Of a stretch of 48,737 nucleotides of DNA, positions 8,756 to 34,538 are shown in pieces. The position numbers and the translations under genes were made by a program. This DNA is from a phage. The stretch lies in sequence record PZ452607.1. One strand, given 5' to 3'. How positions within the stretch are numbered: the stretch's first letter is position 1; every line of letters begins with the position of its first letter. The notes below the pieces were generated by a model. That model did no database searches. It was not told where the DNA came from and saw only the letters and a program-made list of their open reading frames with translations.

Positions 8756-9143
8756 GTTATCAGCGGCGGCGCGAGCCGCTTTTCTATCAAAGTACAGAGA
8801 CTTTCCTCACTACATGGAAAACAGAAATTTCACACCGCCGAAGGATGGCGGGATGTGGCTGAGGTTCAACTACATTGAAGGGGATACGCTTTATCTATCC
8901 ATTGACAGAAAGTGTAAATCTTACATCGCAATCGTTCAGATCGGCGTAGTGTTCCCTCCAGGCTCCGGCGTTGACGAAGCAAGATTGAAAGCAAAAGAGA
9001 TTGCTGATTTTTTCAAAGATGGTAAAATGCTTAACGTTGGTTATATTTTCGAGGGTGCAATCGTGCATCAAATTGTTAAACATGAAAGCGGGTGGATGAT
9101 TCCGGTTCGCTTTACAGTACGAGTAGACACAAAGGAGACTTAA
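8745..9143 (+). CDS. tail terminator-like protein
   Basis: ORF between neck protein and major tail protein. Confidence 0.35.
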   Translation: MHYELSAAARAAFLSKYRDFPHYMENRNFTPPKDGGMWLRFNYIEGDTLYLSIDRKCKSYIAIVQIGVVFPPGSGVDEARLKAKEIADFFKDGKMLNVGYIFEGAIVHQIVKHESGWMIPVRFTVRVDTKET

Positions 9144-16098: not shown

Positions 16099-19000
16099 AT
16101 GATTCAAAAAGTGATAAGCGGATCTAAAGGTGGGTCACAGAAGCCTCATAACCCAGTTGAGATGGAGGACAATCTAATCTCAATCAACAAAATCAAGATC
16201 CTGTTAGCTGTATCTGATGGTGAAATTGACGAAACATTCAGCCTGAAGCAGTTGATGTTTAACTCAGTCCCGGTGCAAAACGAGGATGGCTCATTTAACT
16301 TCGAGGGAGTAAAGGCAGAGTTCAGACCGGGGACGCAGACTCAGGAATATATCAAGGGAATGGAAGATAGCTCTAGTGAGGTAACTGTAAATCGTGAGGT
16401 TACTACCGATAACCCATACACAATCTCAGTAACCAACAAAACGCTGTCGGCAATCCGTATCAAAATGTTCATGCCTCGCGGCGTACGAATTGAAAGTAAC
16501 GGTGATAAAAATGGCGTAAGAGTTGAGTATGAGGTGCAACAAGCTGTTGATGGCGGCTCGTTTGAGACGGTGCTCACCGATGTAATCGAAGGCAAAACAA
16601 TGTCAGGTTACGATCGAAGCAGACGTGTAAACCTACCTAACTTCAACAATCAGGTGATATTCAGAGTGGTTCGGAAAACTCCAGACTCTAACGACTCGAA
16701 CGTTGTTGACGCGATTCAGGTAAAGAGCTATGCCGAGGTGATTGATGCCAAATTCCGTTATCCGCTGACTGGTCTTCTTTTTGTCGAGTTTGATTCGAAG
16801 ATGTTCCCAAACCAGTTACCTACGATCTCAATTCGTAAGCGCTGGAAGATTGTAAACGTTCCGTCAAACTATGATCCAGAATCACGAACTTATAACGGAA
16901 ATTGGGATGGAACTTTTAAGAAGGCATGGACGAATAATCCGGCCTGGGTGCTTTATGACCTGATGATTAATCAGCGTTATGGCTTGGATCAGAAAGAGCT
17001 TGGTATCGCTGTAGATAAATGGGCGCTCTACGAGGCTGCGCAATATTGCGATCAGATGGTTCCTGATGGGAAGGGCGGGACGGAACCTCGATACCTTTGC
17101 GACGTGATAATCCAGTCTCAGACTGACGCTTACAAGGTTATCCGAGATATTTGCTCAATCTTTCGTGGTATGAGCTTTTGGAATGGTGAGAGCATTTCGG
17201 TAATCATCGACAGGCCGCGTGAACCTGCGTACATCTTCACTAACGACAACGTTGTTAATGGTGACTTCTCCTACACGTTCGCAAGCGAAAAGAGCATGTA
17301 CACGACGTGTAATGTGATGTTTGATGATGAACAAAACATGTATCAGCAGGACGTTGAGCCAGTATTCGATCGTGAGGCTACTCTACGGTTTGGGAACAAC
17401 GTTACGAGCATTACAGCGATCGGTTGCACACGTCGAAGCGAGGCCAACCGACGCGGGAGATGGATTCTGAAAACTAACCTCCGCAGCACTACGGTAAACT
17501 TCGCTACCGGGCTTGAGGGCATGATCCCAACAATCGGAGATGTTGTGGCAATAGCTGATAACTTCTGGTCAAGTAACTTGACAATGAACCTGTCAGGGCG
17601 TTTGCTCGAAGTGTCTGGAAGTCAGATTTTCTTGCCGTTCCGGGTGGATGCACGCGCTGGTGACTTTATTATCGTAAATAAGCCAGATGGCAAGCCTGTG
17701 AAGCGCACAATCTCAAGTGTTAGTGCGGATGGTAAGACTATAGAGGTTAACATTGGCTTTGGCTTTCCTGTGAAGCCTAACACGGTATTCGCTATCGACC
17801 GCACCGACATTGCGTTACAGCAGTACGTCGTGACAAAAATCGATAAGGGCGATGATGATGAGGAATTTACCTACAAAATAACGGCGGTGGAGTACGATCC
17901 TAACAAGTATGATGAGATTGATTACGGAGTTAACATCGACGACCGACCGACGAGCATCGTTGAACCAGATCAGATCCCTAGACCGAAAAATGTGCAAGTA
18001 TCCTCAGAGTCGAGAATCGTCCAGGGGATGAGCGTAGAAACGATGATTGTTAGCTGGGATAAAGTTCCGTACGCTGTTTTCTATGACGTCCAGTGGCGAA
18101 AGGATAACGGTAACTGGCAAAATGTACCGCAGACAGCAAACAAAGAGGTATACGTTGAAGGTATTTACGCTGGCAACTATCAGGTTCGCGTTCGCTCAGT
18201 CGCTGGTTCGGGCACGACTTCAGGCTGGTCAAATATCGTCGCGGCAACGTTGACGGGTAAACAGGGTGAACCGGGCCGAACGATTAACCTCACAGCTACG
18301 GATGATGTTGTTTTTGGTATCCGTACAAAATGGGGGTTCTCTGATGGTTCTGGAGATACAGCCTATACAGAGTTGCAACAGTCACCGGATGGAACAGTGG
18401 ATAACGCAAGTTTGCTTTCTTTGATTCCGTATCCGCAGCATGAGTATTATCACTCACCAATGCCTGGAGGGAATATTGTTTGGTATCGGGTAAGGACGGT
18501 TGACAGGATCGGTAACGTGTCTCAGTGGACTGATTTTGTCAGAGGTATGGCATCAACAAACGTTGACGATATCATTGGGGAGATTTCTGTTGATATCGAA
18601 AACTCACCTGGTTACGAGTGGCTTGTTGATAACGCAACAGACAACGCGGCGCAGAACTCAGCTAACGCAGAGGCAGCAATAGAAAACGCGCTCGCCAATG
18701 ACAAAGACGCGATCTACATGAAGAAGGAGAACGGAAAACGAAAAGCTGAGTACACGAAATCACTGAAACTTATTGCTGATGAGACGCAGGCACGAGTGAC
18801 GGCGATCGAGCAATTGAAGGCAAGTTTTGGCGATCAGATTAGCGCTAGCAACAGCGAGCTGCGTGAGGTTATCGCAACCGAGACTGAAGCACTATCGCGT
18901 GAGATTGACCAGCTTAAGGCTCAGATTGGTGACGATATTCAGGCAAGTCTGACTGATATTCGGGAGGCTATCGCGAACGAGACTGAGGCTAGAACGCAAG

Positions 19001-19518
19001 CTGACTTAACACTTAGCGCGCGGCTTGGAAATAACGAGGCGGCACTTGCTCAAAAACTAGACTCGTGGAGTAACGCGGATTCTACTGGTGCAATGTACGG
19101 TGTCAAGTTGGGTCTGAAATACAACGGCCAGGAATACAGTGCAGGCATGGCTATGTCTCTAGTTGGTTCCGGAGCTGCGGTTAAGGCGCAGATTTTGTTT
19201 GAGGCGTCACGATTTGCCATCATGACTGGAATGAATGGTCAGACTCAGTACCCCTTCGTTGTTGAGAATGGTCAGGTTATTTTAAGTAGCGCGATTATCA
19301 AGAACGGATTCATCACCAACGCAATGATTGGAAACTTCATCCAGTCGAATAACTATGTATTTAACAAGTCCGGATGGAGGCTTGACAAGGGTGGAACATT
19401 CGAAAATTACGGAAGTGACGGTGAGGGTGCAATGAAGCAAACTAATACCACAATATCTGTTAGGGATGCGAGTGGTCGCCTGAGGGTTCAGATTGGCAGG
19501 TTGACTGGCTCATGGTAA
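16099..19518 (+). CDS. tail tip host-specificity protein (lambda J-like central fibre)
   Basis: 1139-aa ORF after K/I homologues with own promoter; coiled segment near C-terminus. Confidence 0.8.
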   Translation: MIQKVISGSKGGSQKPHNPVEMEDNLISINKIKILLAVSDGEIDETFSLKQLMFNSVPVQNEDGSFNFEGVKAEFRPGTQTQEYIKGMEDSSSEVTVNREVTTDNPYTISVTNKTLSAIRIKMFMPRGVRIESNGDKNGVRVEYEVQQAVDGGSFETVLTDVIEGKTMSGYDRSRRVNLPNFNNQVIFRVVRKTPDSNDSNVVDAIQVKSYAEVIDAKFRYPLTGLLFVEFDSKMFPNQLPTISIRKRWKIVNVPSNYDPESRTYNGNWDGTFKKAWTNNPAWVLYDLMINQRYGLDQKELGIAVDKWALYEAAQYCDQMVPDGKGGTEPRYLCDVIIQSQTDAYKVIRDICSIFRGMSFWNGESISVIIDRPREPAYIFTNDNVVNGDFSYTFASEKSMYTTCNVMFDDEQNMYQQDVEPVFDREATLRFGNNVTSITAIGCTRRSEANRRGRWILKTNLRSTTVNFATGLEGMIPTIGDVVAIADNFWSSNLTMNLSGRLLEVSGSQIFLPFRVDARAGDFIIVNKPDGKPVKRTISSVSADGKTIEVNIGFGFPVKPNTVFAIDRTDIALQQYVVTKIDKGDDDEEFTYKITAVEYDPNKYDEIDYGVNIDDRPTSIVEPDQIPRPKNVQVSSESRIVQGMSVETMIVSWDKVPYAVFYDVQWRKDNGNWQNVPQTANKEVYVEGIYAGNYQVRVRSVAGSGTTSGWSNIVAATLTGKQGEPGRTINLTATDDVVFGIRTKWGFSDGSGDTAYTELQQSPDGTVDNASLLSLIPYPQHEYYHSPMPGGNIVWYRVRTVDRIGNVSQWTDFVRGMASTNVDDIIGEISVDIENSPGYEWLVDNATDNAAQNSANAEAAIENALANDKDAIYMKKENGKRKAEYTKSLKLIADETQARVTAIEQLKASFGDQISASNSELREVIATETEALSREIDQLKAQIGDDIQASLTDIREAIANETEARTQADLTLSARLGNNEAALAQKLDSWSNADSTGAMYGVKLGLKYNGQEYSAGMAMSLVGSGAAVKAQILFEASRFAIMTGMNGQTQYPFVVENGQVILSSAIIKNGFITNAMIGNFIQSNNYVFNKSGWRLDKGGTFENYGSDGEGAMKQTNTTISVRDASGRLRVQIGRLTGSW

Positions 19519-19524
19519 TATCAA

Positions 19525-19550
19525 GGGCATCGAGAGATGCCCTTTTCTTT
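19525..19550 (+). terminator. intrinsic terminator after J-like gene
   Basis: GGGCATC gaga GATGCCC then T-rich tract. Confidence 0.55.
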
Positions 19551-19563
19551 TGGAGGATTTATT

Positions 19564-19869
19564 ATGGCGTACGGTATATCAACTTGGGACGCAAATGGCG
19601 TTTATAATAACTATGGAATTAAGCCTATTACGGTTGTTGGTTGGAACTTTTTGTCAGCAGGCCAGAATTCAGCATCGTTCAGCTATCAAGTGCCTCCTGG
19701 TATGCATGTGAACTACGTTATAAGCCTTGACGATGGCGCCATTAGTGGGCCTGGCAGGAAAATTATTGCTAGCGGTAATACGATAACAGTAACGCCAACA
19801 AACTCACCTGGGCCAAACGTGTACCCATCATCAAACTGTTACTTAATAGCATATCTGGAGAATGATTAA
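19564..19869 (+). CDS. hypothetical tail-associated protein
   Basis: RBS GGAGG; follows J-like gene; N-terminus resembles N-terminus of next ORF. Confidence 0.4.
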   Translation: MAYGISTWDANGVYNNYGIKPITVVGWNFLSAGQNSASFSYQVPPGMHVNYVISLDDGAISGPGRKIIASGNTITVTPTNSPGPNVYPSSNCYLIAYLEND

Positions 19870-20558
19870 TGTCATACGGTGCTTTTATAGATGTAAACGG
19901 AAACCCATTCATAACCCCGTTATCCACGCCATTCGCTTTATATGCGAGAGGGGAAATTCAATCAGTAAATGTTAGTGGTTCACAGGTTGCGGAGAGATAC
20001 GTTCGGATACCTACAGGTGTTCCGGTTATAGCTTTTTGCAAAACAACAAACACGCAGCAGGGGACCGCGCTTTCAGCCTTTACTTTCAGAAGCGGACCCA
20101 ATGTTGGAACTGTTTATATAAGGGGGACAAATCCAGCAAACCAATCATACACGCTAACATACTACATATTTGCCATATTTGAGCAGTCACTACCGAGATG
20201 GGGTATGGCAATATGGGATGCGACAGGAAAGCTAGTGCTGACAAATGAGACAAAAGTCCTTAGTGATTTGGTTACAATCGGCACTCCTGGATACGCTGGC
20301 GGTGGATTAAACATAGACACAACACTCAGCGGAAGCTACGCGGTTGTTCCAACTATACTTGGCAACTATCAAATTGTTATTGGAAGGTTGCCAACTGGGC
20401 AACCAATAATAGGAAACTCAACAGCAGGCAGTTCATGCAGGTACAACGGGAGCACAACGAGAATAAATGCAGCAGCAACCACTGCGGCAGGTCAGATAAT
20501 GAACACAGCGAATAATGGAAATATTATAACAGCAATCAAAACGGCAGCATACGACTAA
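19869..20558 (+). CDS. hypothetical tail-associated protein
   Basis: 229-aa beta-rich ORF; ATGA-type coupling with previous gene; followed by terminator. Confidence 0.4.
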   Translation: MSYGAFIDVNGNPFITPLSTPFALYARGEIQSVNVSGSQVAERYVRIPTGVPVIAFCKTTNTQQGTALSAFTFRSGPNVGTVYIRGTNPANQSYTLTYYIFAIFEQSLPRWGMAIWDATGKLVLTNETKVLSDLVTIGTPGYAGGGLNIDTTLSGSYAVVPTILGNYQIVIGRLPTGQPIIGNSTAGSSCRYNGSTTRINAAATTAAGQIMNTANNGNIITAIKTAAYD

Positions 20559-20576
20559 GCCCCTTGCGGGGCTTTT
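20558..20576. terminator. terminator hairpin between convergent genes
   Basis: GCCCC ttgc GGGGC then TTTT. Confidence 0.5.
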
Positions 20577-20579
20577 ATT

Positions 20580-20807
20580 TTATATCGAGCAATCGTGAGA
20601 TTTGAAGTTTTTCTCTGATACATAGTTGAAGGAGAATGGGTATCCAGCACGCAATACCATCTCCTTTCCGCGCATCTTAGATCCAAAAACGTAAACCGAG
20701 TACTCCGCGCCGCCTGATTCATAAATTGCCGTGCAAGTGCGCTCAGGCATCGATGAGCAACCAGTCAGGATGAATGCCGCAGCGATAATGGTGATTAACT
20801 TTTTCAT
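20580..20807 (-). CDS. small lipoprotein, candidate Cor/Llp-like superinfection-exclusion protein
   Basis: Signal peptide with lipobox LTGC; two later Cys; own sigma70-like promoter; adjacent to receptor-binding tail genes as for known exclusion lipoproteins. Confidence 0.45.
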   Translation of the reverse strand: MKKLITIIAAAFILTGCSSMPERTCTAIYESGGAEYSVYVFGSKMRGKEMVLRAGYPFSFNYVSEKNFKSHDCSI

Positions 20808-20836
20808 TTGTATGTCCTCGTCGTTAGTGTGATTGC

Positions 20837-20865
20837 ATTGTATGTCGCATTTACTTTTATTGCAA
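20837..20865 (-). promoter_or_regulatory. sigma70-like promoter for lipoprotein gene (TTGCAA-17-TACAAT)
   Basis: Hexamers read on minus strand with 17-nt spacer, about 30 nt upstream of ATG. Confidence 0.45.
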
Positions 20866-20886
20866 TAGAGCGATTACAATTTTTTT

Positions 20887-21170
20887 CGTGTAACAGGCGT
20901 ATATTTTTGTAACCGGAATGGGTGTTACAAAATCGCCTCCATCCGACCGCAGGGAGATATGATAAAAACTCTATATAATATATATAGATAGATAATATTT
21001 AATTTTAGCTTTATATATATAATTATTGTTGTGTAACAGTTGTATATCGTGTAACAGGTGATTTGATTGATTCGTCAAATTTCTATCATGTATGTTCAAA
21101 ATTTAATCAATCTGGATTCTATTTGTAGGTATCTCTGTATTTCTAATAAAAAGCGGTTACAAGTGTTACG
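20887..21170. repeat. GTGTAACA(G) / GTGTTACA motif cluster in AT-rich control region
   Basis: Copies at 20887, 20921 (inverted), 21031, 21049, 21164; same motif as inverted pair at 40261 and 40286. Confidence 0.5.
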
Positions 21171-21275
21171 CAATAGACAGCGCATAAAAATCTACTTAAG
21201 CCATTGATTCTGTTGATGCTGGTTGTAACTTGAGCAATATAGACACGCAATTACACACTGATTACATGTATTCGA

Positions 21276-21303
21276 TTGACTAAACGCTGTTAATGGCTAT
21301 AAT
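21276..21303 (+). promoter_or_regulatory. sigma70-like promoter for recombination module (TTGACT-16-TATAAT)
   Basis: Near-consensus hexamers about 30 nt upstream of ATG 21335. Confidence 0.55.
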
Positions 21304-21334
21304 GGATTCATCGTAAACGAAGGAGATAAACGCA

Positions 21335-22399
21335 ATGTTCCAGGTATTCACATCAAGCCAGCTTTCTAACGACGAGTATCATAGAAACGAAGGTTGGGCG
21401 TCAGAGTATGTAAGCGGATCGAGTCTTGCAGAAATTTATCAGACCTGCCCTGCTAACTGGAGATTCAAGAAGAACGAGACAACGAAAACTCTGGAGTTCG
21501 GTACTCAGTCGCACACCAACTTTGAGAGTCGAGATCTGTTTACTGCAACGTATGCTAGATGCCCTGCTCCGTCAGAGTTTAAGGATCTGATTACTTCGCA
21601 GGCGGCGCTGGCAGCAAAATTAAAATCATTCGGCCTGAAAGGTACATCCGGTAAGCAGTACCCGGACCTCATCAAAATGATGGTTGATTGTGGTGAAGAA
21701 CTCAACGTTCAATACCTGATTGAACTGATCGCAGAAGCTGAGGCCCGTGCTGAAGGAAAACAACTTGTTGACGCGGACAAATACGACGCTTGCATGAAGA
21801 TGAGAGCCATCCTTGAGCAGAATCCCGATCATGAAGCGTGCATCAACAGTGAAACGGCGCAGCGTGAGATTTCAATCTTCGGTGAGATATCCGGCGTAAA
21901 AGTTAAGGTTCGACTTGACCATCTGGACTACAAAGAGAATGTTCCAGGTCGTGTCCTGACTGGTTATGATGAGAATGGCGATCCGGTATTTGAAGACGTA
22001 ATTTTCCCGGAAGCACTGATTATCACAGATTTCAAAACTACGATGAGCGCCAACCCGTTAGAGTTCCCGAGACTGGCATACAATCACGGCTATTACCTGA
22101 AGATGGCATTGCAGCATGACCTGCTACGACGCGCAATCCAGGCTGGAGCTTTTGAAGGTAACTTCCCGGAAGACATTCCGATCGTGGTTCGATTGCTTGC
22201 GCAGGAGAAAAAAGAGCCTTATATCGCACTGGCTTACCGTATGACTATGGAGCAAATCAGGATAGGTCGTAACCAGTACATTAGCGTAGTCCACACTTAC
22301 AAGGCTTGCTCTGAAATGGATGTTTGGCCTGGGTACGCTGGCGACGCAAGCGAGATCGAACTTGAAACGCCATCATGGGTGCGTTACCAAAATAAGTAA
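21335..22399 (+). CDS. putative recombination exonuclease (RecE/YqaJ-like)
   Basis: First gene of module followed by Erf-like and SSB genes; strong upstream promoter TTGACT-16-TATAAT; family assignment from context. Confidence 0.45.
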   Translation: MFQVFTSSQLSNDEYHRNEGWASEYVSGSSLAEIYQTCPANWRFKKNETTKTLEFGTQSHTNFESRDLFTATYARCPAPSEFKDLITSQAALAAKLKSFGLKGTSGKQYPDLIKMMVDCGEELNVQYLIELIAEAEARAEGKQLVDADKYDACMKMRAILEQNPDHEACINSETAQREISIFGEISGVKVKVRLDHLDYKENVPGRVLTGYDENGDPVFEDVIFPEALIITDFKTTMSANPLEFPRLAYNHGYYLKMALQHDLLRRAIQAGAFEGNFPEDIPIVVRLLAQEKKEPYIALAYRMTMEQIRIGRNQYISVVHTYKACSEMDVWPGYAGDASEIELETPSWVRYQNK

Positions 22400-34050: not shown

Positions 34051-34538
34051 TGAGTTTAAAAAATAACGTTATAGGCGCATCAATCGGGGCCGCTTTGACG
34101 TTGACACCTACCCTACTGGAACGGATCGAAGGTATAGAATACGAGGTTTATTACGATATCGCCGGAGTCCCTACCGTATGCAGCGGAATAACCGGGCCTG
34201 ACGTCATACCTGGTAAGAAATACACTAAGCGAGAATGCGATGCATTGCTGATAAAACATATCGGCGTCGCTCAGCGATACGTTGACAAGAAGGTTAAGGT
34301 TGACATTCCGGTAACTATGCGCGCATCACTGTATAGCTTCACTTTCAACGTTGGGACTGGCGCTTTCGGATCGTCTACAATGCTTAAGCTAATCAATCAG
34401 CGCAAGCACAAAGAAGCGTGTAATCAGTTATGGCGATGGGTATACTACTACAACCCAAAAACCAAAAAGCGCGAAGTGTCGAGAGGGATCAAGAATCGGC
34501 GCGCTGAAGAATACGCATATTGCGTTAAGGAACTATAA
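34050..34538 (+). CDS. endolysin (lysozyme, GH24-like)
   Basis: Catalytic triad spacing E-x8-D-x5-T ([13 protein letters not shown]); ATGA overlap with holin. Confidence 0.7.

Follow-up and report, generated by a model that had tools for sequence, protein, structure and literature searches.

The lipoprotein gene facing the tail genes of a coliphage T1 stretch is cor, whose product probably closes the FhuA receptor from the periplasmic side

We analyzed a 48,737-nucleotide stretch of phage DNA (sequence record PZ452607.1, called the window below) and found that the lipoprotein gene on the strand opposite its receptor-binding tail genes is cor of coliphage T1, a gene that is already known and has been annotated as Cor since the 2004 genome paper. 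[quoted passage not shown] Recent papers have already treated T1 or T1-like Cor in this same role, and the result carries little weight as a discovery. It does support the initial annotation, which, made from the sequence alone, had proposed a receptor-blocking lipoprotein of the Cor/Llp type: the product is 100% identical to T1 Cor, it matches the family models NF047972 and PHROG 1119, its gene lies in the cassette that is also present in N15 and phi80, and its predicted fold is Llp-like.

Identity of the gene and of its lipoprotein product

The window is 99.8 to 99.9% identical to coliphage T1 (99.8% over positions 19400 to 21400 and 99.9% over the first 25 kb), and its position 1 corresponds to T1 position 8945. 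The T1 match of window positions 1 to 25000 came in two pieces, in which 25,099 record bases stand against 25,000 window bases; together with the start at 8945, this two-piece match implies a deletion of ca. 99 bp relative to the reference and a different sequence start point. The gene and the two parts of its product have the following coordinates.

20580..20807, minus strand: cor (T1 ORF30), with an ATG start and a 75-aa precursor, stop codon counted, as given in the ORF list
20757..20807, minus strand: lipoprotein signal peptide of Cor (aa 1 to 16), ending in the lipobox LTGC, located by sequence and by Pfam LPAM_1
20583..20756, minus strand: mature domain of Cor (58 aa), for which a small beta fold of five strands was modeled; C25, C73, and the motif A54-G-Y-P-F58 are invariant

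The product of the ORF reads MKKLITIIAAAFILTGCSSMPERTC...SHDCSI at its ends and MKKLITIIAAAFILTGCSSMPERTCTAIYESGGAEYSVYVFGSKMRGKEMVLRAGYPFSFNYVSEKNFKSHDCSI over its full 75 aa. It is 100% identical to T1 ORF30 (AAP49969.1/YP_003915.1), for which the records carry the labels "lysogenic conversion protein Cor" and "Cor superinfection exclusion protein." The NCBIfam equivalog NF047972, "phage exclusion lipoprotein Cor," was matched over residues 1 to 73 with 55.8 bits versus a cutoff of 31, and PHROG 1119, "Cor superinfection exclusion protein," over residues 1 to 74 with an E value of 3.3e-30. Homologs in the protein database fell into 20 clusters extending down to 59% identity, one of which is named "phage exclusion lipoprotein Cor," and a tblastn search with Cor yielded matches in 235 phage genomes. 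Identity to the Cor proteins of N15, phi80, and mEp213 is 36 to 38%, the value for N15 being 36%.

A 75-aa lipoprotein with an LTGC lipobox and two downstream cysteines had been described from the letters of the DNA, and this description was confirmed. The lipobox comprises L14-T15-G16-C17 (nt 20768 to 20757, with the Cys17 codon at 20759 to 20757), and it is preceded by an n-region with KK and by a hydrophobic h-region; the two downstream cysteines are C25 and C73. When all ORFs of 50 aa or more were inspected in the six frames of the window, a K/R n-region followed by a hydrophobic h-region and a lipobox was present in only 2 of 217, i.e., in cor and in an ORF starting at 34538, and the Cor lipobox is for this reason not regarded as a chance pattern. 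The sole Pfam model at threshold was LPAM_1 (20.1 bits versus a cutoff of 20), a generic model of lipid attachment. Cys17 is predicted to be the lipidated first residue of mature Cor, and the serine at +2 is predicted to direct the protein to the outer membrane, following the Ser(+2) sorting rule established for the Lol pathway.

No substitution of C17, C25, or C73 was seen among 20 homologs, which extend down to 59% identity, or among orthologues with as little as 36% identity; G16 is likewise invariant among the aligned homologs, and the AGYPF motif does not vary in the Cor homologs, those of N15, phi80, and mEp213 included. The AF2 model of the mature domain has pLDDT values of 84 to 91, and we reasoned from the sequences that a C25-C73 disulfide probably staples this domain. 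The other ORF with a lipoprotein signal, which starts at 34538 on the plus strand and encodes 133 aa, is probably the unimolecular spanin of T1; such a separate spanin has been attributed to T1 (Kongari 2018, as cited in PMC11945409).

Transcription signals of cor and the adjoining tail-gene cassette

Convergent transcription of cor and the tail genes, as claimed in the initial annotation, was borne out, since cor on the minus strand runs against J and the genes at 19564 to 19869 and 19869 to 20558, all on the plus strand. On its other side is the exonuclease VIII gene, which begins at 21335, and cor is the sole minus-strand gene among these plus-strand neighbors. Standing alone in this orientation, it must have a promoter of its own. 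The signals located around the gene are listed here.

20837..20865, minus strand: candidate sigma-70 promoter, consisting of TTGCAA (20865 to 20860), a 17-nt spacer, and TACAAT (20842 to 20837)
20815..20819, minus strand: ribosome-binding site GAGGA of cor, 7 nt before the ATG, annotated as RBS in AY216660 and conserved in the alignment of upstream regions
20557..20574, no strand assigned: GC-rich hairpin from the terminator scan, where the 229-aa gene and cor converge, between their stop codons

The candidate promoter ends 29 nt upstream of the ATG, and its exact form, TTGCAA-17-TACAAT, occurs a single time in the window. It had been called a good promoter; the two elements and their spacing are indeed present, but their strength is only moderate, with 9 of 12 positions agreeing with the consensus. 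A consensus scan detected 8 comparable promoter-like sites in 1.7 kb versus 5.5 ± 2.3 in shuffled sequences, so the match taken alone is not significant. A −10-like hexamer is nevertheless located 29 to 32 nt before the cor ATG, as TACAAT in Tunavirus, TATAGT in Hanrivervirus, and TGT-AATACT in Dhillonvirus; its flanks have diverged among the three genera, whereas its position has been kept. In Dhillonvirus, a TTGCAA is also present 17 nt ahead of the −10-like element. The conserved −10 position across three genera supports the candidate cor promoter, which is annotated in neither of the two T1 records. Both records do annotate the hairpin at 20557 to 20574, as a rho-independent terminator, and it possesses a T-run in the plus direction only. 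An Rfam scan of positions 20300 to 21500 (E ≤ 1) returned just one match, to a fungal snoRNA, which was below threshold and is ascribed to chance.

Upstream of cor in the order of the tail operon, three plus-strand genes form a cassette with it.

16099..19518, plus strand: J-like central tail fiber/tip attachment protein, T1 gp33, by Pfam (Phage_Tail_Tip, FNIII-A_GpJ, Phage-tail_3), PHROG 31, and annotation
19564..19869, plus strand: T1 ORF32, 101 aa from the annotated start, PHROG 557
19869..20558, plus strand: T1 ORF31, 229 aa, PHROG 425

ORF32 shares 57% identity with N15 gp22 (BLASTP, 7e-39) and ORF31 shares 53% with N15 gp23 (BLASTP, 6e-72), and both are thus better conserved between T1 and N15 than Cor is (36%). 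A search of the two proteins for a signal peptide, a transmembrane segment, or a hydrophobic segment found none, and neither protein matched any model in Pfam or NCBIfam. A similar motif opens both ORF32 (MAYGISTWDANG) and ORF31 (MSYGAFIDVNGN), and the motif WGMAIWDATGK recurs at residue 111 of ORF31, the larger protein; this recurrence hints at a shared repeated domain.

The order J, ~100-aa gene, ~225-aa gene, and cor was found in Tunavirus, Nouzillyvirus, Hanrivervirus, Dhillonvirus, mEp213, N15, and phi80, and this cassette has been linked to the use of FhuA (PMC13164509). The orientation of cor relative to the tail genes in these phages is as follows.

Tunavirus SH2 and ADB-2: cor inverted (the ~100-aa gene is unannotated in the ADB-2 record)
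Nouzillyvirus: cor inverted
Hanrivervirus: cor inverted
Dhillonvirus: cor inverted
Lambdoid mEp213: cor co-oriented
N15: cor co-oriented
phi80: cor co-oriented

The gene is therefore inverted in all virulent carriers examined and co-oriented in the three temperate ones, a small sample.

That the receptor of T1 is FhuA (tonA) is textbook knowledge (PMC10373560; PMC13164509). It had been suggested that the lipoprotein gene could reveal the receptor used by the J-like protein; this idea is moot, because the receptor has long been known, and it probably names the wrong binder, as the literature puts the receptor-binding protein (RBP) in the locus between J and cor. According to comparative genomics, the hypervariable locus downstream of gpJ encodes a receptor-specific RBP together with accessory exclusion factors (PMC8594841; bioRxiv 10.64898/2026.04.02.716166). 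Rather than J, the FhuA binder of T1 is probably ORF32 or ORF31, the small proteins encoded between J and cor, and ORF31 is likely to be the FhuA-specific RBP or a part of one. The T1 cryo-EM study could not resolve the C terminus of gp33 (J), and neither gp31 nor gp32 came up when its text was searched for them. The T1 cor locus bears on receptor prediction from the region downstream of gpJ.

Proposed action of Cor and its alternatives

In the mechanism that we propose, host RNA polymerase would start at cor's own promoter and transcribe the gene separately from the late tail operon that converges on it. After export of the 75-aa precursor, the lipoprotein pathway of the host would attach lipid to Cys17 and cut behind Gly16, and Cor would sit in the inner leaflet of the outer membrane. 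By homology, the 58-aa mature protein would bind FhuA on its periplasmic face (plug); this TonB-dependent ferrichrome transporter is the receptor of T1. Homology and fold further suggest that Cor would force the extracellular FhuA loops into a conformation to which T1 and other FhuA-dependent phages cannot bind, in the manner of T5 Llp. For a virulent phage, two benefits would be expected: the infected cell would no longer take up further FhuA-dependent phages, and the progeny would not be lost to FhuA on envelope debris after lysis ("lytic conversion").

Several lines of published evidence bear on this mechanism. For T5 Llp, the binding to FhuA and the allosteric refolding of its loops have been solved structurally (PMC9586334). 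Cor is cited as inactivating FhuA functionally (Uc-Mass 2004, as cited in bioRxiv 10.64898/2026.03.26.714494), and, according to the cited literature, expression of the Cor proteins of phi80, N15, and mEp167 excludes FhuA-dependent phages and impairs FhuA functions. T1 Cor and Llp have been predicted to have a common fold (bioRxiv 10.64898/2026.03.26.714494), and the Cor protein of KanT1, a T1-like phage, was docked by AF3 on FhuA's periplasmic side with an ipTM of 0.84 (PMC13164509). In the searchable literature, no direct experiment on T1's own Cor was found, and the papers that call the function of T1 Cor "reported" cite the work on mEp167 Cor and T5 Llp; we infer the exclusion function of T1 Cor from its orthology with the Cor proteins of phi80, N15, and mEp167.

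The molecular mechanism of Cor has been described as not elucidated so far (bioRxiv 10.64898/2026.03.26.714494). Interactions of Cor with OmpA, OmpC, OmpF, and OmpW, as well as with LamB and Slp, have been reported (Arguijo-Hernandez 2018, as summarized in PMC9311878), and such contacts with other outer-membrane proteins suggest a more complex mode. Furthermore, T1 needs TonB and FhuA loop 4 (L4), whereas T5 is TonB independent and needs loop 8 (L8) (PMC10373560); thus, the allosteric details of Cor may differ from those of Llp.

Among the known systems, the Cor proteins of temperate phages (phi80, N15, HK022, and mEp167/mEp213) are placed in the same family as T1 Cor by the curated model, at 36 to 38% identity. 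They are equal to T1 Cor in size, they possess the lipobox and the two conserved cysteines, FhuA is the common receptor of the phages, and T1 cor likewise directly follows J and the gp22-like and gp23-like genes. In contrast, cor faces the tail genes in T1, Hanrivervirus, Nouzillyvirus, and Dhillonvirus, being inverted and convergent with them, whereas in N15, phi80, and mEp213 it runs in their direction and is provided with a promoter and/or terminator of its own. T1 Cor also differs from the temperate proteins in that it lacks a 3-residue insertion ahead of C25. Since T1 is virulent, its cor cannot serve as a prophage conversion gene and must act during lytic infection.

T5, another virulent siphophage that depends on FhuA, encodes Llp (PDB 8A60 chain B and 7QJF), again a small lipoprotein of the outer membrane with a conserved cysteine pair (PMC9586334), and the llp gene adjoins an RBP gene, on the opposite strand and with its own promoter. 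The predicted fold of the T1 Cor model is closest to FhuA-bound T5 Llp, and the modeling indicates that the two proteins share a three-dimensional fold. Their similarity in sequence is marginal. BLASTP gave no alignment between Cor and Llp, and Pfam PF24052 (Phage_lipoprotein) remained below its cutoff on T1 Cor (17.7 versus 27 bits; E = 0.0035; residues 3 to 51). A search of the PDB with a Cor profile (hmmsearch) had 8a60_B as its top match (E = 0.0072), in an aligned stretch that includes the signal peptide, and hhalign of Cor with Llp gave a probability of 94% over 50 columns. Foldseek of Cor against the PDB did not place Llp among its top 50. The two systems differ further: Llp gives no match to NF047972, the NCBIfam model of Cor, llp is divergent from oad whereas T1 cor is convergent with the putative RBP genes, and the RBPs are unrelated (pb5 versus the T1 ORF31/32 family). 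A phmmer search of the PDB with Cor had returned only designed armadillo-repeat proteins; these were discarded as spurious, their scores being added up from ~9 chance stretches, for each of which the i-Evalue was near 1000.

A further relative in function is Rtp45 of the T1-like phage Rtp, a superinfection exclusion protein that targets LptDE. As the accessory exclusion factor, it comes from the hypervariable locus that follows gpJ in Drexlerviridae, as T1 Cor does, and its receptor is likewise approached from the periplasm (PMC12685063; bioRxiv 10.64898/2026.04.02.716166). Unlike for T1 Cor, the receptor in question is LptD and not FhuA, and the reported mechanism is a steric-clash conformational change, a distinction drawn from the descriptions. 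T1 Cor bears on the more general matter of how small phage lipoproteins jam TonB-dependent transporters.

How far Cor acts alone and directly on FhuA was weighed against a different arrangement, in which it would affect FhuA-dependent infection via other outer-membrane proteins or as one component of a three-part system with ORF32 and ORF31. The KanT1 paper speculates that both upstream proteins add to exclusion, cor and the two cassette genes travel together across unrelated phages, and the higher T1-N15 conservation of ORF31 and ORF32 (53% and 57%, versus 36% for Cor) would fit such a system. However, the two proteins have no signal peptide or membrane segment and are encoded in the late tail operon, comparative genomics identifies ORF32/ORF31 as the FhuA-specific RBP locus (PMC8594841; bioRxiv 10.64898/2026.04.02.716166), and in phi80, N15, and mEp167 it is cor alone that is described as the exclusion gene. 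The closeness of the Cor model to FhuA-bound Llp argues against a mode other than that of Llp as well, and we hold this arrangement to be distinctly unlikely.

We consider it very improbable that cor is an unexpressed relic of a temperate ancestor with no role in the virulent cycle of T1, although the cassette is common to T1 and lambdoid prophages, and cor is defined as a lysogenic conversion gene while T1 is virulent. A promoter of just 9/12, statistically indistinguishable from background, and a terminator hairpin devoid of a T-run in the direction of cor could also be read in this way. Against these points, the ORF is intact in four genera of virulent siphophages, at 46 to 97% identity, and its functional residues do not vary there; the RBS is conserved, as is the position of a −10 element, and virulent T5 uses the analogous Llp early in infection (PMC9586334). 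Almost no credence is given to Cor as an outer-membrane spanin subunit (Rz1-like) or as some other accessory of lysis. Such subunits are, like Cor, small outer-membrane lipoproteins encoded by phages, and Cor has weak PHROG matches to Rz-like spanins (E = 0.02 to 0.09), but these cover residues 1 to 24 only, which is the signal peptide, whereas the full-length match is to the Cor family and not to spanins. Moreover, cor is not part of a lysis cassette and lacks an i-spanin partner; it is flanked by tail/RBP genes and the exonuclease VIII gene. A separate unimolecular spanin has been attributed to T1, and the only other ORF of the window with a lipobox is that at 34538. The spanin assignment was rejected on the two grounds that its PHROG matches are confined to the signal peptide and that the gene context is wrong.

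The AT-rich region beside cor

Between cor and the exonuclease VIII gene, positions 20808 to 21334 (527 bp) have a GC content of 33%, versus 45.5% for the window, and they contain 7 of the window's 24 TGTAAC/GTTACA hexamers. The only three copies of GTGTAACAG in the window are found here, at 20888, 21031, and 21049 (0.18 expected), lying inside a 12-nt repeat, TCGTGTAACAGG, and an inverted pair, TTTTGTAAC/GTTACAAAA, is present at 20905 to 20932. The TGTAAC cluster is retained in Tunavirus SH2 and ADB-2 and in Nouzillyvirus BUCT-XGG-1 and is absent from the Hanrivervirus loci. These repeats could be binding sites for a regulator of cor and/or of the rightward genes.

A speculative and rather doubtful extension of the FhuA-closing mechanism is that T1 Cor might be more than a plain copy of the temperate Cor. 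The inversion of cor, common to all virulent carriers examined, and its place beside an AT-rich region with clustered TGTAAC sites may be an adaptation by which a gene for "conversion" by a prophage became one for "lytic conversion," expressed early and under regulation of its own, and, since T1 needs TonB and FhuA loop 4 instead of loop 8, Cor may lock FhuA in a conformation other than that induced by Llp. Among the sigma-70-like promoters nearby, the strongest is TTGACT-16-TATAAT (11/12; 21276 to 21303, plus strand), which immediately precedes the exonuclease VIII/recombinase genes and carries a promoter annotation in AY216660.
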